Positions 6,081 through 51,996 of a DNA stretch of 64,000 nt are shown here, in pieces. The stretch's first letter is position 1; each line of letters opens with the position of its first letter. A program made the translations under genes and the position numbers. Source of the stretch: Amphiscolops sp. MND2022 (taxonomy: Eukaryota); the NCBI GenBank assembly GCA_964187785.1, contig OZ076409.1, forward strand, positions 42,286,001 through 42,350,000, written 5' to 3'. The notes beneath the pieces are model-generated. The model did no database searches. It worked only from the letters and a program-made list of their open reading frames with translations, and was not told the origin of the DNA.

Positions 6081-6109
6081 AACGAAGTAAATTGAAGCTG
6101 CCAAGGTAG

Positions 6110-21201: not shown

Positions 21202-21490
21202 CCCTGGTCGAGAAAAAATGCGTTCCTTGCAAGGATCTTGCAAGATCTTTGTAAAAATGCAATTAATTGTACAATCTTGCAAGGAAATTTGTTCCTTGCA
21301 AGATCTTGCAAGGAAATGTTTTCCTTGGAAGATCTTGCAAGGAAATGTTTTCCTTGAAAGATCTTGCAAGGAAATTTTTTTTCTTGCAAGATTCTTGCAA
21401 GATGTCTTGCAGAAAAATGCATAATCTTGCAAGACCTTGAAAGAAAATCTTGCAAGATCCTTGCAAGGAACGCATTTTTTTAAACCAGGG
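21202..21490. mobile_element. 289-bp MITE built from TCTTGCAAG(A/G) motifs
   Basis: TIR CCCTGGT..AAAAAATGCGTTCCTTGCAAGGATCTTGCAAGAT and its reverse complement at the right end; TT flanks on both sides. Confidence 0.88.
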
Positions 21491-23739: not shown

Positions 23740-25993
23740 TGTCACGACCCGCTCCCGGTCGGGATTATAGCTGCTGCAGTGGGATACCTGGTTTCGAAAT
23801 TGGCCGGGGACAAGGCCGAGGTAAACTCTATTAAACTAATTTTAAACTGATCTAAATTCTACTTACAGTACAGCGAAATCGATTGCAGATAATTTTCCAA
23901 ATGCAAAACCTAGCGTAAACGTTACGGAACACTTTTCAGAAATGATTTTTAGCTAAAACTTCCGGTCAATTATTCCCCGCGCGTGATAAGATTTTTCACT
24001 TCCGGTATGATCTTCTGATTTTCTGCCATACTAATCTAAACACTAAAATGAACATTTATAATTGGGATCATTCTTTCCACTGGTCCACACTAAAATGAAA
24101 ACATTAAAATAAAATTCAATTCCGAGATCCCAACGGAATTCATACAATCTAAAATGAAAAGGAACAGACAAATAATAGAGCGGAATTGTTTTCCAGAGAT
24201 GAAGTGGTTGTCAATATTCACTTAAAGCACAGCCAAGTGATTTAGGCAAATATTTACAACGCTATGGCAACGCCAATCTACTGAGCTAATATTAGGAATT
24301 TTGCTTCTACGGACCAATAACGTCACTCTATTGATAGAACTATTCTTAGCTAAGCTGAATAAAAGCAATTTTGGTTGCCCCTAGCAACACCAATTGAAAT
24401 AAGAGAGAGGGAATGAATTCACCTACGCACTCCGCTTTCTCTCCGCTTGATCTGATAGCTGAGCTATGAGCAACCTTAATACGTACGGGACAGCTACGGA
24501 GCGGATTGTAAAATTGTATTCCGCCGTTCAGCTATAACCAATCTTAATACGTACGGAACAACTCGTAAAATGATAGCGGTGAAGTATTAGTTTAAACCGA
24601 AATCAAATAAGGATTTTTCTGAATCGACGCACTTAATGAATTTTTGAAAACAAGTCCACATGTAAAAGGTTGTACTGTAAGAAAGGACTAAAATTATGTT
24701 CGAAGAGTAACGGTGCTATTGCAATAGTTTCTCAATTCACGCGTGCCTTACGTTACATTAAGAGTTTATGTATTCAGTGATTAGTTGTTTATCATTAAAA
24801 TGTTTCACAGAACGTAACGTAAGGTCAACGTCAAAACCCAAACCAAATGCTATTGATGCAGAATGCCTGCCCTGCCTATTCATATGCGATGCCCAATCGA
24901 GTGCAGAATAATTATTGCCTGCAAATACATTTCCTTTCCTATCTATTTGTACTTTGCAATTCGTATGTTACGTTATGGCCACGTATAGGTCAAAGTTAGA
25001 ATTTCTGTTGGTGCAGTTGTTTAGTTTACAAAATTAACCGTATAATCATCATTATGTTTTCTCTTAGCGTCGCTTGTTCCTCAATAATATTCAAATATCC
25101 GTAGTCCGAAATTCCTTTTGCCTCGTTTCAATTTCGTTAATTTTTGCGAGTCATTCTTTTACTTCGAATCTCAATCTCCCAAATTGAAAGTTGACTAATT
25201 GTTCATGCCGGCGTACTTACGCTGATGAATATGCAAGCTAGACGTTTATTTTACCGCGATTTTGAGACTTAAACAGGAAATGGGATTGCCTGAACAAAAA
25301 TGATTTCAACAAATTTACGGAACACTGACGCAACTAGGAATTTTGATGCCTGGTTTTTACGACGCGGGACTGAAATGATATGAATCATTAGCGCTTTTTG
25401 TTGAACAAACCCGATTTTTGTGATACCTAGGAATTTTTAGGTGAGGAACAAATGATGCTGGGAAAGTATAAATATGTAGTACATACATGTAAAGTTAGTT
25501 AGTTGTGTTTTGCAAGTTGTAATAAACTTAAACTGTTTTCGTTGTTTCAACGTTGAACAAAATCATCTTCGAAGAATTCATCTATTGCCGAAGAATCATT
25601 TTTTAACATTAAAAATGACCACTAGAAGCCAGAAGAGGAAAGCTGTAGCTGAATTAGTGTCTGGAGATTTTGAAGCTTCTTTAGCTGAAAATAACTCTGC
25701 TGAAAACCTGATACCCAGTTCTAGTAAAAATCCTAGACTTGAGCTTGAAAACCTGGAGGAAATAAAAACAACTCTGAGAAAAGAAATAATGACTGATCTA
25801 ACAAAGATATTAGCCGAAAACCAAAAGGAAATGCTTAAATTAATAGCACCAGCGAACAAGAAACGCTCAGTTAGTTCGAACATACAAGATTCTGATTCTG
25901 ACCAAGAAAACATCTCCGTAACGAGAACGTCCACTCCAGTCAAGACACAAACTGCGACTAGTTCTAAAACAACACCGGTCAATAGTCGTAACA
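23740..25993 (+). repeat. Element A 5' LTR (2254 bp)
   Basis: Direct repeat of 37733-39989. TATAAAT at 25467-25473 and AATAAA at 25521-25526. Confidence 0.97.
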
Positions 25994-27024
25994 TGGTGAC
26001 AGGAGTCCTCAATGATTCCACTAACCAACCCACCAAAAGACCGAAAACGCAACGTATACTCAACGAACAACAAAAAGACCGTCCTTCCACATCAAAGATC
26101 CTGTTCGCCCCACAACCACAGACATTCCCATCAACCGACCTACTTCCGATGCCGAAAGCACTCACTGCTTCGCTCCCAGTTTTCGATGGTAAGTCCGAAA
26201 AGTTTGAACTTTTTGAGGACCTATTCCGAAACAATATCAAAATGTATCCTCACCTAACCGAGATACAAAAGATCAACTACTTCCATTCACTCCTACGAGG
26301 AAACGCACTACAAGCGTTTTGTAATCTCGATGACACCAAAAAAGACAATCTAGAAGAAGTCATAACGGCATTTAAACGCCGCTTTGGTGATTTCCAATCA
26401 TCCGCTAAAGCGAGATGTGAGTGGGACGCCCTGCATTTTGACCCCACTAAACAGAAACTTCATGAGTTCCTTGACACCCTGCAAAAAACTGCGAAGGAAG
26501 CATTCGGCTCAGAAGCACAAAAATTCATTGATAAAGCAATCTACGCCAAAATGCCAGATCACGTCAAAAAGATCCTCAACAGAGCATATTTGGAAGATAA
26601 ACCCTACAATGACATAGTTTTACATCTTGAGAGGGAAATGAGATTAAACGGACTAGGTGCGCCCGATGAAACAACCCTAGTCCCACTCAACACAGTGGAC
26701 GCTGTAGTGACGGACCATCAAAAAGATCAACAACAACGAGGCCATTGCTTTCACTGTGGCAAATATGGCCACTACAAGGCACAGTGTCGCAAACTTCAAC
26801 GAGAACGTTATAATACAGCCAAAACAAACACAAAAGACCTAGCCCAAAACGAAGTACCCAAACCCAAGTGTGATACATGTGGCAAGATGCACAAAACTGA
26901 GAATTGTTGGAACGGAGCCAACGCAGCAAATGACCCCAGAAAGAAAAAACGAGAATTCACCATCCCAACCAACAAAATCAGTGAACAACCTGTACCCACC
27001 ACGTCCTCTCAGCCAAAAAACTAA
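25615..27024 (+). CDS. gag: Gag, starting within the 5' LTR
   Basis: First ATG at 25615 (the ORF track starts at an upstream TTG). Capsid-like LPVFDGKSEKFELFEDLF; zinc knuckles CFHCGKYGHYKAQC and CDTCGKMHKTENC. Confidence 0.93.
   Translation: MTTRSQKRKAVAELVSGDFEASLAENNSAENLIPSSSKNPRLELENLEEIKTTLRKEIMTDLTKILAENQKEMLKLIAPANKKRSVSSNIQDSDSDQENISVTRTSTPVKTQTATSSKTTPVNSRNMVTGVLNDSTNQPTKRPKTQRILNEQQKDRPSTSKILFAPQPQTFPSTDLLPMPKALTASLPVFDGKSEKFELFEDLFRNNIKMYPHLTEIQKINYFHSLLRGNALQAFCNLDDTKKDNLEEVITAFKRRFGDFQSSAKARCEWDALHFDPTKQKLHEFLDTLQKTAKEAFGSEAQKFIDKAIYAKMPDHVKKILNRAYLEDKPYNDIVLHLEREMRLNGLGAPDETTLVPLNTVDAVVTDHQKDQQQRGHCFHCGKYGHYKAQCRKLQRERYNTAKTNTKDLAQNEVPKPKCDTCGKMHKTENCWNGANAANDPRKKKREFTIPTNKISEQPVPTTSSQPKN
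25994..26006 (+). promoter_or_regulatory. Primer-binding site TGGTGACAGGAGT (probably tRNA-Leu)
   Basis: TGG directly after the LTR-terminal CA. One mismatch from the tRNA-Leu-type PBS TGGTGTCAGGAGT. Same 13-mer at 62076 (element C); TGGTGACAGG at 58079-58070 on the minus strand (element B). Confidence 0.8.
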
Positions 27025-27092
27025 AATCGCCGCGCCTACGATTTGGGGAAAAAGTAGACGCGAGGGCGTACACGATAGAGGACCCCCCAAAC
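27015..27092 (+). promoter_or_regulatory. -1 ribosomal frameshift signal (A_AAA_AAC plus candidate pseudoknot)
   Basis: AAAAAAC at 27015-27021, just before the gag TAA. The pol frame is -1 and open from here to ATG 27168. Stem CGCGCCTAC/GTAGACGCG; loop TTTGGGG can pair with downstream CCCCAAA. Confidence 0.8.
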
Positions 27093-30000
27093 AGGTATGA
27101 AGAAGATTTTTTAACTGAATGTAATGAAGAACCAACTCAAGACTGGCAACGCCGCTGGAACGTAGGCATGATACTCAGGCATAACGCCAGACATCCAGAA
27201 GATCCAACACCACTACCCCAGTGGATAACAGAATCGCCCGATAACTACGCGACACTCAAAAGACCGTTACCGGAATCAAAAACAGACCGAATTTATATAT
27301 ATGACAGAGACTACAGATGTGACCCTTGGGACGAACCAACCATCTATGATACAAATAAACTATCCTTCAAAATACAAGTCTCAAACCCTCAAGCTCAAAC
27401 CACGACGACCACAAACCTACCGTCACCGCCGTCACCAATCCTAAAAAGAACAACACCGTCCCCAACAGCACCCGTCACCGTCACGTCCACACCGATCGAT
27501 GCCGAAAACATCATATGCATTGAAGACAAAACAATATGGTCACGACAAGCAAGAGAACAGCGAGAAAACACCGCTTCGCTCTCGTCATCACCACAAACCG
27601 CGCCAGCCACAGCAATAGCCGCTGAAGACGAAGAAATAACGGAATGTCACCCAACACTACCAGAAGATCTAGATGTCATCAAAGAATTCATCCAGCACGA
27701 CAAGGAAGACGACTACATCCCGTTTATGTCTGCAATTGCCCTCAAGAAGAAAAAGAGAATGCTCTTCTTACCAATCGAATTCAACACTGTCAAAATCGAA
27801 GCCTTAGTCGACTCAGGTGCGTACATTAATGCTATTAGCGAAAGGGATGCTGAAAAACTCCACCAAAATGCGAGTCAATGCATTATTAACAAAGCACCTC
27901 CACCCCCTTTCAAAGTGCAATACGCCAATGCCGAACTAGAACAACCACTTGCCACGTACACTCTACGCTTCAAAATAGGAGATTACACTTTTGAAGAAAC
28001 ATTCATTATCATGAATCAAACGTCATTCCCCATAATTGGATTAGCGTTTCTACGAAAGCATGCCGCAATCCTTGACACGGCACAGGGAACCATCAACTTT
28101 CCCAAGATCCAAATCACGATGGCGCTCACAGACGAAAGACAAAAGTGCAATCCAAAACCCATCACGATAAAGACCGAAGCCAAACACACAATTCCAGCAC
28201 ACTCTACCCGAATCATATACGCAACAATCCCTGTGAGTACCGAACACTCAATAACGGGCACAATACAACCCCTACCACAATTCGATGAATGCGCGAAAGT
28301 AATAGTAGCCCCAGCGATTACAACAGCTAGAGATAAAAAGCTCCCAATTAAAATCGCCAACACCACGGATTTTCCATACACAATAGCCAACGACACCAAA
28401 ATGGCCGAACTGCAAATCCTGAAACCCGAAGAAACGAAGATGATCCGCCCAGTTGACATTGCTGCCCTGAATCTCCTCAATGACCATGACGATGTGGTCA
28501 CGTACATCAACGCACTAATGCAAGTAGAACGGCCAGAAGACAACGAAGAAAAATTCTGGTTCCCGACCCCAGATCACCCAGGCAACGAACAAGAACATTC
28601 GCCCATACAAAAGCGAATCCTGAAAGAACTGCGAGACCTTGCCGAATTAGAAAAACTTGACCCAACCGAAAACGAAGACTCTCGCAACAAATTTCTATCA
28701 ATGTTCAAATGGACAGACTCACTAATTACGGGCAAAGACCGTGAAAAACTTGAGGACACCATTGTTGAATTCAATGACATCTTTGCTCGACACCGACTAG
28801 ATATCGGGATGAATACACAGTTCAAAGTCAGCCTAACACCACAGGACGACAAACCAGTCTACACACAGAGCTTACCCGTCCCGATCAACCTCAAAGAATA
28901 CCTAACAGTGGAACTGGCACTGATGCACAAATACGGCATCATCACGACACTCCCCTTCTCCAAGTACGCCAGTCCTATATTTGCACAACGGAAACCCAAC
29001 GGCAAACTGAGACTACTGGTGGATCTGCGCAAAATCAACGCACTCATAGCAGATGACTACATCAACAACAACCACCCTGTCAGCACCCTCTCAGATGCGG
29101 CACAACACCTAGCAGGGAAAAAACTATTCTGCAAACTTGACTGCTCCCAGGCGTACCACTGCCTTCAAATGGCAGACCAAAGGTCAGTAGAGTTACTTGC
29201 TTTTAATTTTGCTAGTAGGACGTTCGCCTACCGTCGCCTGGCACAAGGACTAAGCAGAGCTCTATCAGCCTTTTCGAGCTTCATGCGTGAGTATCTGGAC
29301 TCAGTCATTAAAGCCGATCAATGTGCACAATACGTAGATGACATTGGCATTGCCGCAAACACAACGGAACAGCTCATAAAAAACATCAGAGCAGTCTTCA
29401 AATGCATCCGGAAAGCAGGACTAAAACTAACCATCGAAAAATGCCATTTTGGAGTAACCCAAATCGAATTTCTTGGACGAACCATCACCCCCGACGGAGT
29501 AGCCCCGCAAGATCAAAAAGTCAAAAATTTCCTCTCCAAAGTACGCTTCCCCAAATCCAAAAAACAAGTTCAAAAATACATTGGCTTTGTTAACTATTAC
29601 CGCAACTACATACCGCGCTTATCAGAAAAACTCATCGGCATGTACGAACTTCTTAAAGCAGACTCCAAGATCAGAATTTCAGAAGAACTTGTCGATAACT
29701 TTAAGGAAATCAACGCCAGTTTAGCGGAAGCTTGTGGACTCGCACTAAGACAGCCTATAGCAGGAAAACAGTACGTTCTAATGACGGACGCAAGCTTTCG
29801 TGCGTCAGGCTACGCCCTCATGATTGAGGAGAACGATGAACGCAAAATACTCTCCAAACGGAAAACCTTCGCACCAGTAGCGTTCGGATCACGAGTTTTT
29901 TCACCTGCACAACTGAAAATGTCTATCTACTGCAAGGAATTCTTAGCAATCTACCATGCATTCCTCGAATACAGCCACATACTATGGGAAGCAACAATTC

Positions 30001-32312
30001 CAACCCTGGTCTTAACAGACAACCGCTCAGTAACGAGATTCTTCCAGACCAAAACGACACCCCCTGCACTCTGGAATGCCTGCGACTATGTATTACAGTT
30101 CAAGTTCCGAATTATGCACGTAGCAGGCTCCCAGAACACAGCAGCAGATTTTCTTTCAAGACTTGAACTTACACCGAAAGAAAAGGTCCAACTTAAACTA
30201 CGAGACGACATACTAACGTCCCCAATTGAGGTCAATCTACAATCATCAGATGTAGCTGACGAAGAACAACTTTTCTTCCTACCTGATGACGAAGATGAAT
30301 CTGAACAAGAAATCTTTGCCCGAAAAGCACTCAGCAAACAACGCGCCCTAGACGAACATGAAAGAGAACTATCAACAAAAGTAACCGAAGTCATCAAGAT
30401 ACCACTCAACTCCGCAGTCTACTCCTTCGGCGCAATCAAAGAAAATGCACGGATCAGAAACGAACAAGATGCAGACCCTCTCCTCAAAGCACTGAAGCAA
30501 CGGATCTCACATGAAGAATATGACAAACACCTCCTCAAAACTGAACCACGAGGACGAAACCTATTACGCCACGAAGAAAGAATCATAATGAAGGATGGAG
30601 TTCTGATGCGGAAATACTACGGAGAAGACGGATCAGTCACCCATAATCAAATCATAATTCCGAAACACCTAGTCCCAGAACTCTTGGCCACTCTACATGG
30701 GAAAACAAATAAACATCCAGGAATCGCAAAAATGATACAAGAATGCAGAGCGAAATACTACTTCCCGGGTCTTGCACGTAAAATCAGAGCTTGGGTAACC
30801 AGCTGTCAAGACTGCATTGCCAATAAAAGAATCGACACAAGACAAATACGCCCCAAAATGCTAAGCAACACTGAATTCACAATGGGACCAGAAGACTGCC
30901 TAGAAGTAGACATTCTTCCAAACCTACCTTCCTCAAATGGATACCAACACATCATCACGATGATGGACGTTTTTTCACGTTACCTTTTCGCTTACCCGAC
31001 ACAGGACATGACAGCCAAAACAGTCGCACGATGCATAATAGACGTCATGACACGACACTGCTACCTGCCGACCGTCATTCTAACAGATAAAGGATCACAA
31101 TTCAGATCAGAAGTAGTCAATCAAATAACACAAACATTGGATATACGGATAAGCCACGCATCGACGAAACACGCTCAAACAATTGGCATCCTAGAAAGGA
31201 CTCATGCCTCTTTGAAAACCTCCCTAAAGATATCAACGGGGGAACGACGCTCTATGTGGCATAAATATGTCCAGATCGCAGTCATGAACTACAATACGAG
31301 CTATCATGAAAGCCTAGGTTGCGAACCTACAACAGTATTTCACGGACGCATTCCGTACAACATCCTAGACATAAAACTCGGATTGAAACCTGAATGGAAA
31401 AAAGATAACAACGAAGAACTGACGGATCAACTACAGAAGCAAATATCCGAAATACACCATGCCGCCAAAGAAAATCTAATGCAGTCCTACTTAAAGTACA
31501 AACAGTACTATGACAAGAAAGCAACAGCAACACCGCTCAAAGTCAATGACTACTGTTACGTCCTCAATCCGAAGGCAGACAACCAGTCGATGAAATTCGC
31601 TTTTAAAGATTGCATTTGGACTGGACCCTACATAGTAGTCAAAGTACTCTCGAACAACAACTACATCGTACGCCGCACGGGAACTAGATATACCCAAACC
31701 CTCCATAGAATTCGCCTAAGGCTATATGCGCCCAATCAGCGAGTACCTGACGTAACAGTCAGAAGGGAAGATTATCTTCCAGACCCAGAGGTTAAAACAA
31801 CCCACAATGATTGGTACGCGCAAGCTTGGGAAACCGAATTCGGAGAAGTTCTGTTCGGAAACAATACCGAAAACGCCGCAGAAGAAGCCACAGTTACAGA
31901 AATTGCAGACACAACAGGACGCAACGAAACTACAACGGGAAATGATGTGGTTAAAACAACCACCAATGAAAACACAGTGAAAAATGACGTGGTTCAAACA
32001 ACCACACACGAAGCTACAACGGAAAGCGACGTGGCTCAAACAGCCACAAATGAAAATACTGTAGCAGATAAAACACCTTCCGACAATATAACGTCATTTG
32101 ATCTAGATGTCAGCGATAACCCATATATTTTGACCCCACCACCGATACACAGCCCTCCCAAAACACCCGAATTACCGCCTATAGTCGTTGGATACAATCC
32201 TAGAAAAGTGGGACGATACAATTTGAGACCTAATCCGAGACCCAACGTGGACCCTGACTTCAGAATGCTAAACTCAACTACAGCGGACGATTTACGTCAA
32301 ACTCAAAACTAA
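27021..32312 (+). CDS. pol: Pol polyprotein (protease, RT, RNase H, integrase); first ATG 27168, likely made as Gag-Pol
   Basis: ALVDSGA protease; YVDD RT; TDAS RNase H; H-H-CxxC zinc finger, D-D-E core (LEVDIL, TDKGSQF, ILERTH) and GPY integrase motifs; Thr-rich tail. 1714 aa without stops. Confidence 0.97.
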   Translation, partial: LKSPRLRFGEKVDARAYTIEDPPNRYEEDFLTECNEEPTQDWQRRWNVGMILRHNARHPEDPTPLPQWITESPDNYATLKRPLPESKTDRIYIYDRDYRCDPWDEPTIYDTNKLSFKIQVSNPQAQTTTTTNLPSPPSPILKRTTPSPTAPVTVTSTPIDAENIICIEDKTIWSRQAREQRENTASLSSSPQTAPATAIAAEDEEITECHPTLPEDLDVIKEFIQHDKEDDYIPFMSAIALKKKKRMLFLPIEFNTVKIEALVDSGAYINAISERDAEKLHQNASQCIINKAPPPPFKVQYANAELEQPLATYTLRFKIGDYTFEETFIIMNQTSFPIIGLAFLRKHAAILDTAQGTINFPKIQITMALTDERQKCNPKPITIKTEAKHTIPAHSTRIIYATIPVSTEHSITGTIQPLPQFDECAKVIVAPAITTARDKKLPIKIANTTDFPYTIANDTKMAELQILKPEETKMIRPVDIAALNLLNDHDDVVTYINALMQVERPEDNEEKFWFPTPDHPGNEQEHSPIQKRILKELRDLAELEKLDPTENEDSRNKFLSMFKWTDSLITGKDREKLEDTIVEFNDIFARHRLDIGMNTQFKVSLTPQDDKPVYTQSLPVPINLKEYLTVELALMHKYGIITTLPFSKYASPIFAQRKPNGKLRLLVDLRKINALIADDYINNNHPVSTLSDAAQHLAGKKLFCKLDCSQAYHCLQMADQRSVELLAFNFASRTFAYRRLAQGLSRALSAFSSFMREYLDSVIKADQCAQYVDDIGIAANTTEQLIKNIRAVFKCIRKAGLKLTIEKCHFGVTQIEFLGRTITPDGVAPQDQKVKNFLSKVRFPKSKKQVQKYIGFVNYYRNYIPRLSEKLIGMYELLKADSKIRISEELVDNFKEINASLAEACGLALRQPIAGKQYVLMTDASFRASGYALMIEENDERKILSKRKTFAPVAFGSRVFSPAQLKMSIYCKEFLAIYHAFLEYSHILWEATIPTLVLTDNRSVTRFFQTKTTPPALWNACDYVLQFKFRIMHVAGSQNTAADFLSRLELTPKEKVQLKLRDDILTSPIEVNLQSSDVADEEQLFFLPDDEDESEQEIFARKALSKQRALDEHERELSTKVTEVIKIPLNSAVYSFGAIKENARIRNEQDADPLLKALKQRISHEEYDKHLLKTEPRGRNLLRHEERIIMKDGVLMRKYYGEDGSVTHNQIIIPKHLVPELLATLHGKTNKHPGIAKMIQECRAKYYFPGLARKIRAWVTSCQDCIANKRIDTRQIRPKMLSNTEFTMGPEDCLEVDILPNLPSSNGYQHIITMMDVFSRYLFAYPTQDMTAKTVARCIIDVMTRHCYLPTVILTDKGSQFRSEVVNQITQTLDIRISHASTKHAQTIGILERTHASLKTSLKISTGERRSMWHKYVQIAVMNYNTSYHESLGCEPTTVFHGRIPYNILDIKLGLKPEWKKDNNEELTDQLQKQISEIHHAAKENLMQSYLKYKQYYDKKATATPLKVNDYCYVLNPKADNQSMKFAFKDCIWTGPYIVVKVLSNNNYIVRRTGTRYTQTLHRIRLRLYAPNQRVPDVTVRREDYLPDPEVKTTHNDWYAQAWETEFGEVLFGNNTENAAEEATVTEIADTTGRNETTTGNDVVKTTTNENTVKNDVVQTTTHEATTESDVAQTATNENTVADKTPSDNITSFDLDVSDNPYILTPPPIHSPPKTPELPPIVVGYNPRKVGRYNLRPNPRPNVDPDFRMLNSTTADDLRQTQN

Positions 32313-32458
32313 ATGAAAACAATGAGCAGGCTAAACCGAACCGGAGTAGCTACGTAAAATTATCATCTAAACTAAAAAGAACAGCAACAAAGCCAAAATT
32401 ATAGTTCCTTCAGAATCATCAAAACATAATAAAAGTCTACAAATCATCACAACACAAA

Positions 32459-35400
32459 TCACTTGACATGATGATGTATGGAAGGATCAATGTCTTTCTT
32501 CGACTTCTTCTTCGGAGTCGTTTTACTACCACCAGCTTGCACGTTAGACTTCTTCGTCTTCCCGACCTGCTTCCCATCAGTACTCTTTTCACCAACTTTA
32601 TTTCCACTACTTTTCCCTTTTTCACTAACAGAACTGGAACTACTCTGCACAACGGAACTACTACGAGACCCCTGCTCTGCCCGAGATAAACGATTGACTC
32701 GATTACACTCCGTATAATGCTCATCACTGGATTGACGTCGCTTTGCCAAAAATTCTTTATACAGCTTGCAGAAAGATGCAATAAACGAGTCCACACCGGC
32801 ATCGCACAAATCTTTCCATACGTTAAAATCAGAGCCAATATAAAATAGCCCAGCTTCAGAAACAGCATCTCGCATTAGGCCCATGGATGACTCAGTAAAT
32901 AACGACTGCGGAGAATAACCGTCGCTCAAAACATACGATTGAACAACTCTGCAACACAGAAGAACACTTCCTTCAGCCTGTTTACAACTCGACAGATCAA
33001 GAGTAAACGGAGGACTAACACGGTTGGGCTCACCGACAAGCAGACAACACAACTTGAAGACACGAAGTACATGTCGTCGTGACTGGAACCCAAAATCATC
33101 CAGCAAGTAGCGGCGAATGTCCGTGATAGAACTGGCAGAGCGCTCCAATCGACTATGCTGCCTGCGTTTCTCGATCACGTACGCACTATACTCATCCACA
33201 GCAGCATTGCATTCTTCTCGAGATAAAGCGCCACACCTCACAAGACCATCACACAGCTCAGAAAACAAATCAAACGCACACTTATCGTCACCTTCTAACA
33301 TCAGTTCAGGGCAGAAACTGCACAGACCCTTCGAAACAATGGAACGAGTGCTGGCACTCTCCACTAACAGAGTGACGAGGCGATCGATAAATTCTCTGCA
33401 GCGACCACGAAACTTTGGCATCTCGCTTGCCTTCGACGACAAAAGAGACTTCCCATAATCACAGTGAGCCAAGAACTCATCCATAGGTGCAACAGGGAAA
33501 CTTGCCGCCTTTTCCACGTCCATATATGCATCCCAATCGTGAATAGCTGGAAGACTTGACAACTGGCGCGTCTTCATCAACAAACAGTATACGAAATTGC
33601 ATAATTCACCATAGCCATGGAATGCATAATCGCTGCGGCTCTGTCTCAACTTCGGCAAATGAATATGGAAAGTATCCAGCATCAATTGCAACAGCCCAAA
33701 ACGATACGGCACCAGTCCGTCCGAGATCACAGTTGAATCCATACCTCTCAACTAAACAACAACACAAAATAACTAAGTAGACGGAAAACAACAGATGACC
33801 AACAAGACGACCGTGAAGAACCCCCCGAAAAAAAAAAGAGAAAGAAAAAAAAAATCATGCAACAAACTCACACTGTCGGCCTGATCTTTCACATGAGGCA
33901 ATCCGGTACACCGAATGAACAGGCGAATTGAAGGCCACAGGTCCACCAAATCAGTCAGAACCTCACGAAGATCCTGGAAGGCAACGGAACCTTGACGAAT
34001 GGCCTTGCGCAACAACACCTTGCCATCCGTCCAGTCCTCGTACACAGCGCTCTTTAGCCGTAAAATGACATAGTCCACCAAACTTGTCACCTCTACCATC
34101 CCGAAAACATCCTGATGTGCCTGACGCACACACTGTAGGAACACCTCCTCGGAAAACTGTTGATGCATAACAAGTCGTTTCCCATCAGTACGATTGTCCT
34201 CTATCACTCGAAGAAGCACCGGACTAGCACCGCTGACACAAAAGGGAAGTCGCGCATTTTGCACACTATGGACGAACTGTGCCAAAGGAACCAACTCGGA
34301 TTTGGGCATAGGCTGGTCCAAAACTTCCTGACCAATGCAGATTTTCCGCAGAGCATTGTCCAACCAGCACACAACAAAGCATCGTTCCACATCCGCGTCT
34401 TTCTCATAGAACAATGCATATTCATTGCGCGTCCCGACTGCACTGAGAACCAAACGCAACACCCGAGGAGCAAGGCCACGACACAGCAAGGACTGAAACA
34501 ATATACAAATACCATGACTACAAAACCACACTACTACTGCCCCCCCCCCTCCCGAAAAAGAAAAGGAAAAAGGAAAAAAGGAGAAAAAAAAAGAACAAAA
34601 AAAAAGAAAAAAAAGGAAAAAGAGGGAAAACGACACAGACAAAGCTCATGAACCCAGAGACCACAAAAATATGTAATACCCCTACTTACCACCGTCTCAG
34701 CACGACTCCAATTCAGCTGATATTCGGGCGCCCTCTCACCCAAAGAAGCTCGGAAACACGCCCATAAACGTCGCAGCAACGTGAAATCGCCGCCACTCCG
34801 GAGCCACTCACAGACGGCCGAGATCATGGTCATAAATGGGACCTTTGAATCAACTTGGGCATGTTTGGGCACCAAATCTTCTGGAAAGGGAAACCCCTCT
34901 GCCAAGTCCACAAAAGGTTGAGCTTTGTATTCCGCAATCTGGGCGGCAGTCAGTTCCATAGGCTCCAACCATCTATTGTATACGGGCAACCCTGAATGGA
35001 CTCTGTAGCGCACGTCACGAAACCAGTGCCCATCAGACGCGAAGTGACGTTTAAACTCGCCAGATCCTTGTGCCTTCATCCGCACATCTCGATTGCACAC
35101 TCGACAAAAGAACGACGTAGGCTCCCCGCACTTAGAGCCACTGACAAAGTTGGGATATGCGGGATGCAAAGATAACATGCGTCTCTTCAAATGTTTGCGA
35201 TTCCCATAAGTTCGCACTCGCCGCTGGCAGCGATCTTCAATCTTCTTCGACAACTTCGTGAAACCTGCAAACGATAACACAACCATCTATAAATATGACA
35301 CACGATATTGCGACCCCAAAACCCCAACCACACTTAAACAACCCCCTATCAACTATGAGATACTAACGGACCTGTCTCGATACTTTGTACTGCCCGAGTC

Positions 35401-36367
35401 TCCACCTCAGAAATCAGATGACGACCAAATTGCGCCAAGTCAATCGGACTCAACGGAGTATTGCCGGGGAAAGCTAACACCTCCTCCTCCGCTTCTGGAT
35501 CACCTATAACAAACATCAAAACAATTAGGTGGACACACTATAGAATCCCGAACCACTCTGAGAAACCCAACCAGAAGACTAAAGTGAACAACTCTATACA
35601 AGCATTCTACAAAACAAAGAGAAGAGAAAAGAAAAGGATGGGGGAAAAAGAGAAACAACTAACTGCTCCATCCCTCTGCCATAAGCTCCTGTAAGCTAGG
35701 AGAATGACCACCTTGACGTTGCGGTGGCGGAGTCGAAAACTTCACAGCCCGCTCACGAGAACAACTTGGCTCCATGACATCGACAGTTGCAGTGCCCTCA
35801 TCATTTCTCCCTCCTCCACTTTCTTTTGGGGAGGCCGGAACGGCCTCGCCTCCACGAGGCTCACTAACAACAGCAGCATCCTGAAGCTGAGAACCAAATC
35901 CGGTGGCATCTCGCGAAATTCCAGTACTGACGTCGGGAGCCTCTAACAACGAAGAGGAACCAGGCTGGAAAGAAGCAGTATGTCCAGAACCAGCAAGAAC
36001 AGTCGTCAGCATAGCGTTGACAGAGGCAACCGGAAATGCCTCGGTAATGGAAGGGAGTCCCACGGGAACCAAAGAATGGCTAGCCTCCGTATGGGAGCTA
36101 AGCCCGGGCAGCGCAATGGGTTGAGTTACTGAAAATCAAGATCTGGTTCAGACGCGTCAGAGTTACGGGTAAGACTATAAAAGGCTGATCACCAAAAACA
36201 ATAGTCCTATTGCCCAGGAAGTCAGAAAGATTTTACCAACCCGAAGCAGAACGAGAAATATCGATGTCAGAAGGAACAACATCATCATCGGTGAAATTGA
36301 ATGTTGTCTCGTTTCCACTGACGAACCCTGCACCAGTACCAGCAGGAGGACCAGAATCACCATCCAT
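32459..36367 (-). CDS. Antisense spliced accessory gene, ~1070 aa, BED-like zinc-finger protein. Exons 36367-36241, 36128-35664, 35503-35372, 35264-34690, 34492-33872, 33751-32459
   Basis: Five GT-AG introns (36240-36129, 35663-35504, 35371-35265, 34689-34493, 33871-33752), each ending in a pyrimidine-rich tract and YAG. Phases 1,1,1,0,0 join into one 3213-nt reading frame. Motif FCRVC-x16-H-x5-H. The 3' introns have textbook donors; the start and 5' exons are less certain. Confidence 0.8.
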
Positions 36368-36429
36368 CCAGAATAACAACTCAAGAAATCTAAAACAAAA
36401 GGAAAAATCAAGAAAAACTATGCAAAGCG

Positions 36430-36957
36430 AACGTAAAAGACAAGAAAAGGAACAATAGCATCATTTCTACAGGAAAGAAAACCATCTATGTTCCAATTCC
36501 CATTTTTCCTTTTAAAAGCCTATTATGGCATTGACGGAACAAAACGTTTCCAAAAGTTGGATAAAAATCCACCAAGAAATGCTAAAGAAGAATTAAGAAA
36601 ATCATCAGGAGATCACGGAACATAGGCGTAATACACCAATGAAACTGTGTGACGTCATTACGCCATTAACCGAAAAGAGGACGGCTACTAGAATTAGAAG
36701 TTTTCATCAATTATTTCGACCAATCACAACGCAGTAAGAAAGAACTCGTTTCTTTCATTCCGAGACGCACCGAAACGAAAGCGGAAAAACCGACCAATAG
36801 AATTTCGTTAAAAATTACGAAGGAAAAGAATTTGAAACGTTCATTTGTCGTTCAATTTTCATAAAAGCTTGACCAGCATCTTCTGCCAAACTAATTCTCT
36901 GTGAACTAGTCAAAGAAGACATAAGCCAGAATCCTGCAAAATTTAATCCCTGCAATC
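36430..36957. promoter_or_regulatory. Candidate bidirectional internal promoter
   Basis: Lies between two divergent ORFs; TGACGTCA (CRE) at 36650-36657 and CCAAT boxes at 36636, 36720 and 36794. Confidence 0.5.
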
Positions 36958-37827
36958 ATGAACGGATACTCGTTGGTGATAGATATATCTTCCGACGAAG
37001 ATAATAACCGTTGCAGCACGCCGTTGAAGGCATTACCCCTCAACACGATCAGCACTCTTAGTGATTCGTCCACGGAAGCATTCCGTGGGAGTGAAGCTAG
37101 AACAGATTCAACATCCGAGTCTGACTGTTCTCCGAAAAAGCGCGGCCCTACCCCCAGCAAAAAGAAAAAGCTAGGGAGAGTAAGTTTTAATCTACCGCCA
37201 GCAGTAAACCCCGACTCAGATACCGACTTCTACGAAGAACCGGACACGCCACCGAGCCAGCCCCTAACAAGACCAACACCAGTCCTAAAAGAAAAAGCAA
37301 ACATTCCCCAATTAGGAAATGAAAGGGCTCCAAACACAGTCAAGCTGAATGACTTGAATGAGCCTTCGCTGGCAGATTTGGACGCACTACACGGCTTAGA
37401 TATAGAAGATCGGCAGTTTTTCGCAGCAGTTGGCCGTGGACGCACTCACTACGGCGCAAAAGAGAATGCCCCCCCTCCGACTAAAAGAGAGCAATGCATT
37501 TGTGCGTTAAGCGACCCTACTAAGCCGCCGGAAATATGCCCTATCGATACGATGCGAAGAGAACAGGAGCTTCGAGAAATGGAAGAAGAAGAAAGGTTCA
37601 TAACAAAAATGACTGCAGGAAGAGGACGTAGTCGCGGCACGCGGATTCTCAACGGCCGTCCCCCTGTCATCATCAGGAAAGAAATTCCCCATTGCCGAGC
37701 TATACCCTTGTCTCTTGCTTCAAGAGGGGCCCTGTCACGACCCGCTCCCGGTCGGGATTATAGCTGCTGCAGTGGGATACCTGGTTTCGAAATTGGCCGG
37801 GGACAAGGCCGAGGTAAACTCTATTAA
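36958..37827 (+). CDS. Sense accessory ORF3 (289 aa, mostly low-complexity), ending inside the 3' LTR
   Basis: ATG-initiated intact ORF. VIDISSDED (SIM-like), KKRGPTPSKKKK (NLS-like), repeated GRG. No signal peptide or transmembrane stretch, so not env-like. Confidence 0.7.
   Translation: MNGYSLVIDISSDEDNNRCSTPLKALPLNTISTLSDSSTEAFRGSEARTDSTSESDCSPKKRGPTPSKKKKLGRVSFNLPPAVNPDSDTDFYEEPDTPPSQPLTRPTPVLKEKANIPQLGNERAPNTVKLNDLNEPSLADLDALHGLDIEDRQFFAAVGRGRTHYGAKENAPPPTKREQCICALSDPTKPPEICPIDTMRREQELREMEEEERFITKMTAGRGRSRGTRILNGRPPVIIRKEIPHCRAIPLSLASRGALSRPAPGRDYSCCSGIPGFEIGRGQGRGKLY
37722..37732 (+). other. Polypurine tract of element A
   Basis: AAGAGGGG(CCC) immediately before the 3' LTR TG. Confidence 0.7.
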
Positions 37828-39989
37828 ACTAATTTTAAACTGATCTAAATTCTACTTACAGTACAGCGAAATCGATTGCAGATAATTTTCCAAATGCAAA
37901 ACCTAGCGTAAACGTTACGGAACACTTTTCAGAAATGATTTTTAGCTAAAACTTCCGGTCAATTATTCCCCGCGCGTGATAAGATTTTTCACTTCCGGTA
38001 TGATCTTCTGATTTTCTGCCATACTAATCTAAACACTAAAATGAACATTTATAATTGGGATCATTCTTTCCACTGGTCCACACTAAAATGAAAACATTAA
38101 AATAAAATTCAATTCCGAGATCCCAACGGAATTCATACAATCTAAAATGAAAAGGAACAGACAAATAATAGAGCGGAATTGTTTTCCAGAGATGAAGTGG
38201 TTGTCAATATTCACTTAAAGCACAGCCAAGTGATTTAGGCAAATATTTACAACGCTATGGCAACGCCAATCTACTGAGCTAATATTAGGAATTTTGCTTC
38301 TACGGACCAATAACGTCACTCTATTGATAGAACTATTCTTAGCTAAGCTGAATAAAAGCAATTTTGGTTGCCCCTAGCAACACCAATTGAAATAAGAGAG
38401 AGGGAATGAATTCACCTACGCACTCCGCTTTCTCTCCGCTTGATCTGATAGCTGAGCTATGAGCAACCTTAATACGTACGGGACAGCTACGGAGCGGATT
38501 GTAAAATTGTATTCCGCCGTTCAGCTATAACCAATCTTAATACGTACGGAACAACTCGTAAAATGATAGCGGTGAAGTATTAGTTTAAACCGAAATCAAA
38601 TAAGGATTTTTCTGAATCGACGCACTTAATGAATTTTTGAAAACAAGTCCACATCATGTAAAAGGTTGTACTGTAAGAAAGGACTAAAATTATGTTCGAA
38701 GAGTAACGGTGCTATTGCAATAGTTTCTCAATTCACGCGTGCCTTACGTTACATTAAGAGTTTATGTATTCAGTGATTAGTTGTTTATCATTAAAATGTT
38801 TCACAGAACGTAACGTAAGGTCAACGTCAAAACCCAAACCAAATGCTATTGATGCAGAATGCCTGCCCTGCCTATTCATATGCGATGCCCAATCGAGTGC
38901 AGAATAATTATTGCCTGCAAATACATTTCCTTTCCTATCTATTTGTACTTTGCAATTCGTATGTTACGTTATGGCCACGTATAGGTCAAAGTTAGAATTT
39001 CTGTTGGTGCAGTTGTTTAGTTTACAAAATTAACCGTATAATCATCATTATGTTTTCTCTTAGCGTCGCTTGTTCCTCAATAATATTCAAATATCCGTAG
39101 TCCGAAATTCCTTTTGCCTCGTTTCAATTTCGTTAATTTTTGCGAGTCATTCTTTTACTTCGAATCTCAATCTCCCAAATTGAAAGTTGACTAATTGTTC
39201 ATGCCGGCGTACTTACGCTGATGAATATGCAAGCTAGACTTTTATTTTACCGCGATTTTGAGACTTAAACAGGAAATGGGATTGCCTGAACAAAAATGAT
39301 TTCAACAAATTTACGGAACACTGACGCAACTAGGAATTTTGATGCCTGGTTTTTACGACGCGGGACTGAAATGATATGAATCATTAGCGCTTTTTGTTGA
39401 ACAAACCCGATTTTTGTGATACCTAGGAATTTTTAGGTGAGGAACAAATGATGCTGGGAAAGTATAAATATGTAGTACATACATGTAAAGTTAGTTAGTT
39501 GTGTTTTGCAAGTTGTAATAAACTTAAACTGTTTTCGTTGTTTCAACGTTGAACAAAATCATCTTCGAAGAATTCATCTATTGCCGAAGAATCATTTTTT
39601 AACATTAAAAATGACCACTAGAAGCCAGAAGAGGAAAGCTGTAGCTGAATTAGTGTCTGGAGATTTTGAAGCTTCTTTAGCTGAAAATAACTCTGCTGAA
39701 AACCTGATACCCAGTTCTAGTAAAAATCCTAGACTTGAGCTTGAAAACCTGGAGGAAATAAAAACAACTCTGAGAAAAGAAATAATGACTGATCTAACAA
39801 AGATATTAGCCGAAAACCAAAAGGAAATGCTTAAATTAATAGCACCAGCGAACAAGAAACGCTCAGTTAGTTCGAACATACAAGATTCTGATTCTGACCA
39901 AGAAAACATCTCCGTAACGAGAACGTCCACTCCAGTCAAGACACAAACTGCGACTAGTTCTAAAACAACACCGGTCAATAGTCGTAACA
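37733..39989 (+). repeat. Element A 3' LTR (2257 bp)
   Basis: Differences from the 5' LTR that I could see: a 3-bp CAT indel near 38655 and G/T at 25244/39240. Confidence 0.97.
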
Positions 39990-43861: not shown

Positions 43862-44061
43862 NNNNNNNNNNNNNNNNNNNNNNNNNNNNNNNNNNNNNNN
43901 NNNNNNNNNNNNNNNNNNNNNNNNNNNNNNNNNNNNNNNNNNNNNNNNNNNNNNNNNNNNNNNNNNNNNNNNNNNNNNNNNNNNNNNNNNNNNNNNNNNN
44001 NNNNNNNNNNNNNNNNNNNNNNNNNNNNNNNNNNNNNNNNNNNNNNNNNNNNNNNNNNNNN
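43862..44061. other. Assembly gap (200 N)
   Basis: Run of N. Confidence 1.
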
Positions 44062-44526
44062 TGCTTATCTAACACAGCAGATACTAGTTTTGAGTCCCGG
44101 GAAATTTCTGAGTTGAATCCTTGTTGAATTTCTGTTAACTTGGGTTGTTTCTTGATTTTCCCACATTATGTGGGTCCTTGAAGATGAAATATTTGGGTAT
44201 TTCTGGAAGTTTCAGTTTTTCTTGGGAATGAAGTTTTTCCATCTGCATTTTAGACACTTCACTTCAAAGAGTTTCTCGTCAATTTGCTCACTGTCAAACA
44301 AACAAAACATGACTACTTGTTGTCAAAACTTCCAATATTTGTTACTCAAATATTTTGTTATTCAAATATATTCCAAATCTGGGGAACACTTACAAAACAT
44401 GCTTCAACATCAAACCATTAAATCATATTAAATATCAAATCTTCTCCAATTTAACCTAATTTGTCAGAAAAAATTAACCCAAATTCTCTTATGTTCGTTT
44501 TACTGCTTTGTTTGAATTAATTGCTC

Positions 44527-44670
44527 ACTGATCATGACAGTAAGCACAATTTTCAACGGTAACTTATGATTTGAACTAATTTCTTACTGATCATGACAGT
44601 AAGCAAAATTTTCAACGGTAACTTATGATTTGAACTAATTTCTTACTGATCATGACAGTAAGCAATATTT
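44527..44670. repeat. 59-bp tandem repeat, ~2.4 copies
   Basis: ACTGATCATGACAGTAAGCA at 44527, 44586 and 44645. Confidence 0.9.
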
Positions 44671-45222
44671 TTAAACATAAACTTTGAGATTTGAATTCTC
44701 GTGAATAAATTCGAATCACTTAGATCACCAATACAAATCATCATCCAATATTGATGTTTTTTTACATTAAATCCAACATCAATCTTGGGAAGTGAAATTA
44801 ATGCATTTCAATCTTCACAACAAAGTTTATAAAACCATCTTTAATATAGGTAAACCAGTGACTCACAAAACGCGTAAAATAGTCAAGTTCATTACTGTGC
44901 TACACTATTTGACTAATTTTCACCACGTAATTAGTAAGACGGCGTAATTCAGTCAAAATGCGTAGTGGAAAATCGCGTAATTTAGTCAAAGTGCGTAGTA
45001 CTGCATCAGTGCGTAGTTCAGTCAATTAGTGTAAATTTATGGACCGGAAAATAGTGTAAACCAGTCAATTAGTGAATTTTAGTCATTCAGTGTAACTAAT
45101 TATCACTTGGTGTAATAGGAGAAAAGTGTAAAACAGTCAACATCATAATAACTCACTGTGATTGGTTATTAATGCAAGTCGCAAGATCTGGGAACTTGCT
45201 TGCGGGGATATGTATCGTAATG

Positions 45223-47395: not shown

Positions 47396-50300
47396 ATGGA
47401 TAGATTTGCAGGAAGTGAGCCGCGTTTATTCATTTCTTTTCATTTAGATAAGGAATCAATCGGCCAACCAGCCCCAGTGTCAATAGAAGCCGTGGACTCC
47501 ACTCTTTTTGATTTGGGTAATCCTGCACAAACTTTTATTCCCTCCGATGATTCCATTGAAGTAATTGAGGTTTTGCTTTCGAGGCCAGAACGAAGCGAAT
47601 CTGCTCCTGATACTCCGTCCAAAGGACCTATCAAGCCGGAGCCAGAAGAATCAACGTTTTTGTTGCTGTCTGAAATGTATAGACGCGGAGGATTCTCCAT
47701 TAGCAGTAGTGATTCAAACGAGAGAGTTGCGGCATTCTTCACCAGAAAACATTATGAGGCTTTACACACTTTTAAACAGGAGGTCTTAACGACTGATGGC
47801 CCATTAAACAAAGTGAGAGGGAAGAAATTACGAGGTTTCCCAAATACGAGTTCACAATTCCTTCACAGGCGAACATGCAAAATACGTCAGCTGACGGGAC
47901 CCAAGGAACATCTACTGGTATTCCACAACCTAAGCTCCGAGCGGCTTACTGTGGCGACTTGTACAAAGTGTCCCAAGTCACGGTTAGTGAAGATCTGGGG
48001 GCGTTTATCTTTTCTCCTGCAGTAGAGCATACTTCTGTTTGAATTTCTCAATATGCAGTCAGCTTGACCTCCAGTCCACAGATGATAGTCCCTGTCGAAT
48101 GCCCACGGCAACTTCAACTTGTGAAGTTGAGATGAACGTTGATAGTAACCGAGAGTCTGCAGGGTCAACTTTGGCTGAGGCTTTGACTCCCCCTGTTCAT
48201 CGAATCACAACAGATACTATTGGCGACTGAGGCAGTGGCCCTTTGCACGCAATGGCACCAAAGGAAAAAGGCCCTGTACCACTCTCAATTAAGAGTCGTG
48301 AGTTAATTTGTCATTATTTTCCTGAAACGAGGCCAATCAACCTGCCCCAGTGTCATCCTATTAAGAACTTACTCAAAAACAGATTGGTGGCATTTTGCCT
48401 ATCGTCGCAGATGAAAGGGCAAAGCATGGCATGATATACTGAACAGTGTCGTGGTCAGGGCGAGTAGACTTTGTTTGGGTCCCGCACAATCCAATGCCCA
48501 ACCAGCGATGCGTCGACCCAAATCCTTCCAGATTTCTCTTGAATCTGAGATCAATTACAATTCGTCGAGACAAGTTACCCCAGTGAGTCTAACGGAACTA
48601 CGCATAGTGGAGTTTTTTGGGCTTCTGGTCCATCGCGGGAGCATTCACCTCCTAGCAGGTCTTCAACCGTCCACATCGCTAGTCCTCCAATACCTGGGTG
48701 TAGTCGTGGTGACCCTTCAGATCCTTCATCAGTTGCCTTGTTAGAGGCAAGTGTGAACCACGGTGCTCAAACGCTTGCTGACTTGAAGCAGGAAGCCTTC
48801 AGAGACAGTAGGGGCAAAAAGAAAGCAAAATCTAATGCCAAGCCTAAAGTCAAGAACCCACGGAAGGCAGTGAAAATGTTCAGTAGGATCATGAGTAAAG
48901 AAATTTTCGAGAGTATGACGTGGACTTGGACCTTCGTCTCCGGTCCTATGGACTCAAAATGGAATCGCTACAAATTTGATTGCCAAATTTGTAAAGGGAA
49001 CGTTTCCATCTATGGACGTGGGGCCAGAGAGATATTTAGACACTATGCAACCGAACCGCATTTGCGCAAAAATCAAAGATGGCGATATGAGCAGTTGGCT
49101 ACAGAATATTCTGTCACAAAAACCATCCGTCACCACGTGAGAAGTAGCGATGGCAAAATCCTGTCTCCATATGACCTGGAAATGGAATATCGAAAATTCA
49201 ACGACACTGAGCTTGTTGACATTGGGAAAAAATTGCAATTCTACGAAGAATATATGGCCGGCAATGACCACATGACATCCTCCTCGCACAACCGCGTTCG
49301 GGTCCAGACTTCAATCCTTGGGGATTTCCTGCCGTCCTTTGCAACGTCGGAGCACTCAAGAGTTAGGGGCGAGACATTGAAGTGCTAGTCAACCATCAAG
49401 CCTTATTCTCCGACTTCAATTGGAGGAAGGAACGGCTCACGGTAGGTATCTTTTCTGATAAATTACTTGGCTCACAGTTTTGGTTAGTAGCTGCCGAATC
49501 CTAAATTGGGGTTGCACTTAGATGTGGTGAAAGGGATTTTATTTCCTTCATTGATGACCGATCATATTCCGCTGTTTTTTCAAAGGTCCTATTCCACCAT
49601 ATATTCAGATGATGGATGACCTTGGGCAACATGTGGTTGCTAATGGCGACTATGGTGTGTAGTTCAAAGTTCGTCGAGTTTCTCCACTTTTCGATTTCTG
49701 TTTCCTTCACTTGCGTCACTTACGATTTTGGAGTGGCAATCAGCTATGTCGGGTTCTGATCAAATGCACTGGACGAGTAGTCGGTCAGACTGCAGCAGAA
49801 AAGTAACAAATTGGCGAGTTAAATTGCGGCCATCTCCACGTGTACCGGCCTTGTGTGTTGCGGAGGTGGTTCTTTCAGACTGATTCAACTTCTCGACAAT
49901 AGCGCAATTTTTCCTTTTGCAGTCTAGAGCCCAACGCGTTTTGACAACATTTCTCTCCCTAGATTGATGCACAAGAAAAACTATAGTGTTTTTGGTCGGA
50001 TAGACTTTTTTGCCCTGCCGAAGTACCTCAATGTGTCTCTTGGCGGCAGCTTGGACCTCGAGTGCGTGTTATTAGCTCCTGGACTTTCCAAAGTTAGTGT
50101 GTGTGGCTCTTTTATAGGTTTCCATCTTGACGTCAATGCATTAGTCTTTGTGTTCTACAGACAAAACGAAACTGTGAATTGGACATCTCCAGACTTCATG
50201 TGATGTGCCAGGAGTTATTGTCCAACTGAAATTCCATAACCGATTTCTCAACATAGCATTCTTTATTCCAATAAAAGGAAGGAGAATCAAATCAGGTGGG

Positions 50301-51805
50301 ATAGTGCTGTCTTCTAGTATTTAGGTCAAGGTCGTTTTATCCTGTTGTACTATTTATGGTTCGTTTACAGCCTCAAAATTTGGAATGGTCCACCATGGAT
50401 GACTAGCTGTTTACGTGTTGCATTGAATTATTCCAACGACTGGTCCGTGATTGCAAGTATACTCGTCGCAAGAGTTTGAATCCATTCTACCTAAGGTGTC
50501 CTAACCGTCTAGTTGTTTAGATTCTACTACTAGTCAATTACTGTACTATCCAATGGTGTAAACTAGTCAACGTACGTAGCAAAATCAACGAGTGTAACGG
50601 CCTATCAATGCGCGTAATGTGAGAAAAGTGTAAAACTTCCAAAAAAAATATTCGCGCTCTGATTGGACAAAAATCGAACTAGCAGGATCCTGCTAGTTCG
50701 TACCGGCATGTGTATCGTAATGTAGTTTTTCCATCAGCTTGTCTGGACGAAGTGATCGGGGGTTTTGTACCTATCGGCATTTGTGTCAGCACCTTTCAAA
50801 ATTGGTGCGACGCTGTTCCAGTCCAGACGACCTTCCGTCTGACCAAGAATGGCCTGAGCTTCTCAATCTCGATCTTGGTACTACTACTACAGCCCTGAAC
50901 GTGCGTGCTTTCCTTGCCCGAATAAAATTTGATACAAAACTTGACACTGCCTGCAAGGTTCAAGCAGAAAGTGATAAACAGGAAAAGAAAAAGCTGCCTT
51001 GACAATCAAAATTCTGACGAAGGTGAATAAAGATGACTTCGAAGGACTGCTAGTAGTTACGTCACATTTCTGTTCAATTCCGTGCAAAAAATGAAAGGCG
51101 TCACCAGTGACGTCGTCAAGGAAATAGGATGTTTTGATCACGAGACCCTTCTGACTGGACCTAACTCTCACGCAACTTATTGCCACTTACAGCTCTTTAC
51201 CAGTTCCAGGTTGCGGAAATTCTTCACCGTTGATGAAGAGACCACGTGTTGTGAGGAGTACCTGTCTTTTTTTGAGGACTTGAGGCGTAACTACCCTGAG
51301 CTGGTTAAACCGACTGTCTTCAAAGAAGATACTGTGAAATTCCTAATGGAGTTACCGTCCTCTGTTATTCAAACTCTTTCGACTGACCTGCCTATGTTTA
51401 GACGAGCCCTTTCAAAGTTTACTTGCCGTCAAGTTTGGTTCCATTGACTCAGGGGATCCTACTAGTCGTTTCATCGATGTAATTCTGCCAGTGCAGTCTT
51501 ACTTTCGGAACGTACCGCACGGTGTTGAGGCTGTAACTACCAATAAATCAATTGCAGCATTCCTTCAGCTGGAACCCAGCTTCGGTGAACGTCGCTAAAG
51601 TGACGTTTATTGTCCGTGGTAAAGTGATCATTTCCTTGGGCGGGCTAAAATTCTGAAACAATTTGATCCTGCTAGGACGTGTCATTGTGCGCAAGAACGT
51701 GATGTTATTTCTGGAATCTCAACTGCTATTAAGGCTTTAAAACACAAAAACTCCAGTAGGAAAGTGTCGAAGAAGACTAGTGATCAGTTAATCGATGCCG
51801 AGTAA
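47396..51805 (+). pseudogene. Decayed homolog of the antisense spliced zinc-finger gene, in element B
   Basis: FVSG...FDCQICKGNV....GAREIFRHYATEPH matches A FVSG...FFCRVCNRDV....GSGEFKRHFASDGH. SDVVKEIGCFDHETLLTG...EEY...RR matches SIVSKGLCSFCPELMLEG...DEY...RR. Donor GTAGGT at 49442 is at the same codon position as in A. Confidence 0.8.
50500..50722. mobile_element. Partial copy (right end) of the 43428-45222 TIR family, inside the element B antisense gene
   Basis: Ends TGTATCGTAATG at 50722; shares TAGTCAA motifs and GAGAAAAGTGTAAAAC with 45120. Left end not located. Confidence 0.6.
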
Positions 51806-51996
51806 TTTCAGTAAGATGAAAATTTGTTAGTTGCTAGTGGATCTAAATTTTAAATGTACAACTGTTTCTTTAGTATGTAAAGTTGTTTCTTTAGTTTTTT
51901 GTTGCCGGTATTTATTGTCATTTGTATTCAGTCGAGTTAGGTCTGTCTCAATGCACAATCAAGTTAAAGAACAAGGGACAGAACTCATGTATCTGG

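Follow-up and report, generated by a model that had tools for sequence, protein, structure and literature searches.

A spliced antisense gene of likely hAT transposase descent, exchanged as a cassette among Ty3/Gypsy retrotransposons of Amphiscolops

We have analysed a 64,000-nucleotide stretch of DNA from Amphiscolops (the window), in which a Ty3/Gypsy retrotransposon carries, tail to tail with its pol, an antisense accessory gene of six predicted exons. Our results show that this gene is real and under purifying selection, far beyond chance, and that it moves as a cassette between pol/LTR backbones. Its product is likely to have a hAT origin, a relationship that stays below statistical significance in every comparison. 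In our judgement the chances are evenly balanced that a Class I element took over and domesticated a complete Class II (hAT) transposase to serve as its own factor for transcription or anti-silencing, placed the gene in antisense so that its introns survive, and then exchanged divergent versions of it as a cassette among Gypsy copies that number hundreds to thousands. LTR retrotransposons with antisense accessory genes have been described for decades, and the literature consulted gives both the origin and the function of these genes as unknown (PMC7264820). If true, our proposal would be a case of cross-class transposase domestication and the first identified origin for such a gene.

The antisense gene and its host element

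The host element (23740-39989) is young and intact. TG...CA LTRs, a target-site duplication, a primer-binding site, gag and a PR-RT-RH-IN pol together identify it as Ty3/Gypsy. The 5΄ LTR of 2,254 nt (23740..25993, plus strand, as are the following features) was compared with the 3΄ LTR (37733..39989); the pair shows one mismatch in 2,254 aligned bases and one 3-nt indel, and CTACT is duplicated at both element ends, from which we conclude that the insertion is young. A primer-binding site starting with TGG adjoins the 5΄ LTR (25994..26010). The gag open frame, 514 aa from stop to stop (25480..27024), matches DUF1759 and, weakly, Retrotrans_gag and zf-CCHC, and the 1,775-aa pol (26985..32312) has its Pfam domains in the order protease, RT, RNase H and integrase, with no env. 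The gag start (ATG 25612) lies within the 5΄ LTR, and the 3΄ LTR (39608) thus duplicates the first 127 gag codons.

The accessory gene runs on the minus strand from 36367 to 32459 and encodes 1,070 aa, with GT-AG borders, compatible phases and no internal stop across the 1,070 codons of the joined exons. Exon 1 (36241..36367) begins with the ATG at 36367, is acidic and contains an SGNET motif kept across families; exon 2 (35664..36128) is Ser/Pro/Ala/Gly-rich and likely disordered, and exon 3 (35372..35503) is short and acidic. These three exons make up about 240 aa, acidic or Ser/Pro/Ala/Gly-rich, and the same frames were found in other families. Exon 4 (34690..35264) codes for a C2H2 finger (35112-35026) followed by a helical region that would occupy the place of the hAT DNA-binding/dimerisation domain. 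For exon 5 (33872..34492) a helix, three strands, helix-strand-helix-strand and then long helices are predicted, which may represent the RNase H-like core and the beginning of the helical insertion; the putative D1, D2, CxxH and RW sites, all of them replaced, would fall in this exon. Exon 6 (32459..33751, stop TGA at 32459) is all-helical, which may represent insertion plus an hATC-like region, and ends in a tail rich in Ser and Lys that includes a basic, NLS-like stretch.

The original prediction had placed this protein at 32459..35264. The antisense gene is indeed there, but the span covers exons 4-6 only, and three in-phase exons lie further upstream, up to the ATG at 36367. All six motifs it had listed were located on the minus strand in the claimed order, namely the finger, YALFYEKDAD (34420-34391), CVSGASPVL (34240-34214), LTDLVDLWPSIRLFI (33958-33914), GLCSFCPE (33328-33305) and LRVFKLCCLL (33067-33038). 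The antisense orientation, the location in the pol-3΄ LTR interval and the conservation in most copies are those of an antisense accessory ORF (aORF-3R). An env-like third ORF was rejected, the gene being antisense and without a transmembrane segment; no hydrophobic segment was found, the maximum 19-residue hydropathy being 1.32 in exons 2, 4, 5 and 6 and 0.61 in the second extra ORF of the element, which is in sense.

Searches of the 1.07-Gb genome (1,929 contigs), each with 4,170-7,484 first-look candidates, gave at least 114, 112, 130, 147, 150 and 150 matches in overlapping lists, and in 56/56 loci with enough flank a Gypsy integrase lies within 4.5 kb, facing the accessory gene. The homologues fall into three clades, with identities as low as about 22%, and their GT-AG sites are kept. 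Splice sites fall at identical codon positions in the 20 clade-1 elements examined: the exon-4 acceptor AG is present in 19/19 assessed elements, its donor GT in 19/20 (shifted by two bases in the remaining one), both exon-5 borders in 20/20 and the exon-6 acceptor in 12/12 assessed. In clade 2 (18 loci; RT about 80% and accessory protein about 25-33% identical) exons 4-6 form a single open frame of 820-927 aa, which the three exons of the window match end to end; the predicted splicing is therefore independently supported. Clade-3 accessory proteins are about 22-27% identical and are spliced again. The genes also differ in their introns, with an extra one after codon 27 of exon 6 in 18/20 clade-1 elements, precisely missing from the family of the window, and three or more absent from clade 2 (L121-L138), an intron turnover within a retrotransposon gene.

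Selection on the protein is evident from dN/dS values of 0.047-0.155 in the 9 of 22 accessory-gene pairs with computable dS, the other 13 being saturated, and from a pN of 0.12-0.33 between families even though synonymous sites are saturated. An artefact or shadow ORF was rejected, as each frame of the opposite strand is broken by 6-20 stops. Splice sites, the intronless clade-2 frame, dN/dS and the adjacency to integrase together bear out the earlier claim of a spliced antisense gene domesticated by a retrotransposon. Outside this genome, exon 6 matched 719 clusters in a library of 1.84 billion proteins, and the ten cluster entries that were looked up were all ENA proteins without names. No longer relatives of exon 6 were found in the protein database, a finger-only protein search gave one near-identical protein, and none of 597 pattern matches in metagenome contigs was confirmed.

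Origin of the accessory protein

The case for a hAT origin is that two unrelated methods, applied to non-overlapping exons, ranked hAT first; both results were below significance and the sequence-profile tests were all negative. With the exon 5 model Foldseek returned Hermes first (E=0.054, prob 0.21, TM 0.22; a low-confidence model), and in the ESM-Atlas search with exon 6 Dimer_Tnp_hAT appeared in 21/30 matches, with a score of 0.90 and a recognition value of 1914, under the 2300 mark. Both structure models are poor, with pLDDT values of 47.5 and 52.4. Hermes was absent from the wide VIA structure list for exon 5, and a BFVD search with the same model gave unrelated viral proteins at E=0.015-0.05, which we regard as noise. 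The exon 6 model matched generic helical bundles only, with no hAT among them, and ESM-Atlas gave no usable match for exon 5.

Pfam returned no hAT, BED or TRP28 match for the frames of the window, the clade-2 and clade-3 proteins or 42 database relatives, and PDB searches with profiles A1, A2, A3, A4 and A8 gave nothing significant. HMM and hhalign comparisons with the hAT frames of this genome did no better than reversed or shuffled controls, and an unbiased five-landmark chain test stayed at chance level (118/200 shuffles reached the real score). No inverted pair flanks the cassette and no free-standing copies were seen. These negative HMM and profile-profile tests, the low-confidence models and the lack of hAT ends or free-standing copies favour descent from another insertion-type DDE transposase (Mutator, P and Kolobok are such transposases) or from a host protein, with a superficial resemblance to hAT. 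We consider that origin unlikely, because the hAT family, named beforehand, came first in two unrelated searches on different exons, and because the comparison set was mostly Ac-type, with the non-Ac clades barely represented. A hAT ancestry is the origin that we favour. A recent nested hAT insertion was rejected, since there are no ends and the gene is common to three clades.

In the zinc finger, the pattern C-x2-C-x16-H-x5-H is near-invariant in clade 1 (19, 18, 19 and 19 of 19 rows for C, C, H and H, respectively), in clade 2 (45, 44, 44 and 46 of 46 rows) and in clade 3 (20/20). The finger had been described as BED-like, a designation that we abandon: Pfam zf-BED gave no match in 19/19 exon-4 rows but does score the BED fingers of hATs in the same genome, and the finger is a C2H2 of other spacing. 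Its weak, sub-threshold Pfam neighbours are the KIN17, Sgf11 and ZN292 C2H2 fingers. The finger and motif spacing presumably resembles that of some non-Ac hAT clades. A search for a donor hAT with the finger pattern gave 8 matches across the genome vs 5 in the control, and PF14291, also sought in this genome, had no match.

Activity of hAT transposases requires D180, D248, R318, W319 and E572 (PMC6027215). Our catalytic register was aligned by eye, and in it the D1, CxxH and E3 sites rank only 117/734, 56/741 and 82/716. In this register the D1 site is E in 17/17 clade-1 rows, R/Q in clade 2 and V/Q/E in clade 3; the D2 site is L/S/R, with D never among the commonest residues; the RW site reads D-F, A-F or P-F; the E3 site is P in 96, 44 and 19 rows of clades 1, 2 and 3; and CxxH is missing. 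With substitutions at every one of D, D, RW and E, the enzyme would be dead in all clades if the by-eye register is right. The catalytic loss originally predicted therefore stands within this register, and the chain test picked a different one. An active hAT transposase was rejected, with the catalytic residues (by-eye register), a BED finger and flanking inverted repeats with an 8-bp duplication all wanting.

The predicted order of finger, helical domain, RNase H-like sheet, helical insertion and C-terminal helices is that of Hermes (PDB 4d1q/8edg/8sjd), and the length is similar to that of hAT transposases and of their dead domesticated derivatives FAM200 and GTF2IRD2, to which the top-ranked, sub-threshold structure and language-model matches also point. 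In contrast to hAT transposases, the protein has no Pfam Dimer_Tnp_hAT or zf-BED domain, the equivalents of D180/D248/R318/W319/E572 are replaced (by-eye register) and there are no terminal inverted repeats; unlike in FAM200 and GTF2IRD2, the domesticator here would be a retrotransposon and not the host. Should the hAT origin prove right, the domestication of transposases, already familiar from hosts and from Spm TnpA, would extend to capture between transposon classes.

Cassette exchange and proposed function

The integrase tree, which is complete, and the accessory-gene tree, built with FastTree without the long-branch rows L127 and L086, both separate clades 1 and 2 at the deep split and disagree within clades. 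Elements whose integrases are 98-99% identical have accessory proteins that share 49-65%, the integrase of the window is 97% identical to that of L081 with accessory proteins only 50% identical, and conversely accessory proteins 97% identical accompany integrases 91-93% identical. At the DNA level, pol is 97-99% identical between L087 and L090 and the LTR region mostly 79-97%, but identity across the cassette falls to 53-64%, the pattern also seen in L126/L129 and L123/L136. L123 and L126 are 97-99% identical in the cassette, 80-83% in most pol windows and 52-72% downstream. One border of the exchanged segment coincides with the pol end, and the other is located a short way upstream of exon 1.

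Intron 1 (36129..36240, minus strand) is 89-94% identical in five cross-family comparisons, vs 28-61% for introns 4 and 5. It can form a stem, in which only one of 27 pairs is compensatory. We regard intron 1 as a candidate cis-element, acting as DNA or RNA. A search of Rfam gave nothing credible. Intron 1 also contains three 6-bp palindromes (TGATCA, ACGCGT and AGATCT), and a second possible donor four bases in, whose use would lead to an early stop.

What could the role of this protein be? We propose, with about as much to be said for it as against it, that a dead hAT-derived protein acts as a nuclear DNA-binding regulator that aids the element, and our best guess is an activator or anti-silencing factor. 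The spacer of 590 nt between the divergent accessory gene and the sense ORF (36368..36957) is a candidate bidirectional promoter, in which TGACGTCA and CCAAT boxes were recognised by eye; this internal promoter would drive the antisense transcript and, divergently, the 289-aa sense ORF. Because introns on the antisense strand would not be spliced from the sense genomic RNA, they would survive reverse transcription and persist through replication, with occasional precise loss. The protein would enter the nucleus, where the finger and the transposase scaffold may bind element DNA without cutting it, and the acidic, disordered N-terminal 240 aa may recruit host factors, so that the element is kept transcribed by activation or anti-silencing. 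A recent report argues that dead transposases readily serve as sequence-specific regulators, also of their own element (10.64898/2026.08.24.746577).

The swapping of cassettes fits an antagonist of host defence or an RNA binder as well as it fits a DNA-binding regulator. A factor of the same dead-transposase origin could act in Rev-like export, in splicing autoregulation or against small-RNA or chromatin silencing. The KIN17, Sgf11 and ZN292 neighbours of the finger, none of them BED, the conserved and stem-capable intron 1, and the fact that pol and LTR backbones which are themselves nearly identical have exchanged divergent versions of the gene, about 50-65% identical, all agree with such a role. 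We nevertheless think it improbable, since only that one predicted intron 1 pair covaries, the entire transposase-like scaffold is conserved, beyond the finger alone, and selection is purifying with no sign of a dN/dS near 1. Still less probable is a role in targeting or tethering of integration, in which the protein would lead the integrase complex to particular chromatin. The constant position beside pol, the DNA-binding-type finger and the basic NLS-like tail would suit it, but the accessory gene does not co-segregate with integrase in the comparisons given above.

For the DNA-binding regulator that we prefer, the exchange bears on where its target may lie. As the cassette swaps independently of LTR type, a rule of one protein for one LTR, as for VANC, is unlikely, and the target is more likely to be within the cassette (the promoter or intron 1) or a shared LTR motif. 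The targets of VANC (VANDAL) are tandem repeats that co-evolve with the protein (PMC5735166). The accessory protein is like VANC in being encoded by the element and in diversifying between related families, and differs from it in that the gene is decoupled from LTR type and that no target-like tandem arrays were found in the element. The suggested analogy to a VANC-style, family-specific LTR binder is weakened by these two differences.

Antisense ORFs between pol and the 3΄ LTR have been described in the plant Gypsy elements Grande (gene23), RIRE2, Retand (TRP28/Transposase_28) and PvRetro13 and in fungal Boty. Transcription of gene23 in Grande starts from a promoter of its own and its product is nuclear; a regulatory role has been proposed, and the consulted parts of these reports find no likeness of such ORFs to other transposon proteins and call their origin unknown (PMC7264820, PMC11963269). 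The gene described here shares with the plant and fungal ORFs its position, orientation and conservation across copies, but unlike them it codes for about 1,070 aa in multiple exons, has a likely whole-transposase scaffold and undergoes cassette exchange. A Retand/TRP28 accessory protein was rejected, as Pfam found no Transposase_28 domain (PF04195) in the frames of the window or in the relatives. Planarian Burro elements also have antisense ORFs.

Spm TnpA is, as is proposed here, a transposase-derived regulator of its own element; unlike it, with its HTH domains and its place within its own DNA-transposon class, the capture here would cross classes, and the word 'retrotransposon' is absent from the text of that report as available (10.64898/2026.08.24.746577). 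A term search of a study of bdelloid rotifer extra ORFs found no mention of a transposase (PMC5408684), and in the full-text literature searched, mostly open-access journals, there was no report of a retrotransposon accessory gene derived from a transposase. Origin and function become directly testable with this gene, for which an origin can be suggested and the finger is invariant. Nature also supplies intronless versions suited to folding and expression, as well as alleles swapped between backbones that are nearly identical.

The second extra ORF and the surrounding DNA

The second extra ORF (36958..37827, plus strand; 289 aa) is Ser/Pro-rich with a basic cluster, runs into the 3΄ LTR and has relatives in other families. 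Its LVIDISSDE stretch resembles a SUMO-interacting motif, and Pfam gave a weak RBR match only, below the cut-off. In clade-2 elements a different Ser/Pro-rich ORF, of 130-216 aa, lies at this position.

Downstream, a second Gypsy element occupies 41875-59575 on the minus strand (RT 54760-55275, integrase 52600-53626). It is older, its terminal repeats being 86-94% alike, and contains a decayed clade-3 accessory homologue (48549..51595, plus strand). The next Gypsy element lies from 61616 onward, with an RT about 81% identical, and is interrupted by a retroelement on the opposite strand (L199-L200; 66934-71230 in the numbering of the window, minus), in which an 863-aa frame after the integrase is possibly env-like; the 20 kb examined contained no accessory gene. 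Elsewhere in the genome, at G000:C13:16515195-16544194 and C10:2575926-2603866, copies follow each other at intervals of about 13.6-14 kb, the spacing expected if tandem elements in head-to-tail order share an LTR. Outside the element, the window also holds short tandem arrays (5298-6487, 18554-20136 and 21238-21382), two long hairpin-type inverted repeats (8902-9130 and 11673-11838, with arms of 112 and 83 nt) and a DUF5641 frame (1775-2557, plus strand), a domain with which Bel/Pao pol typically ends.
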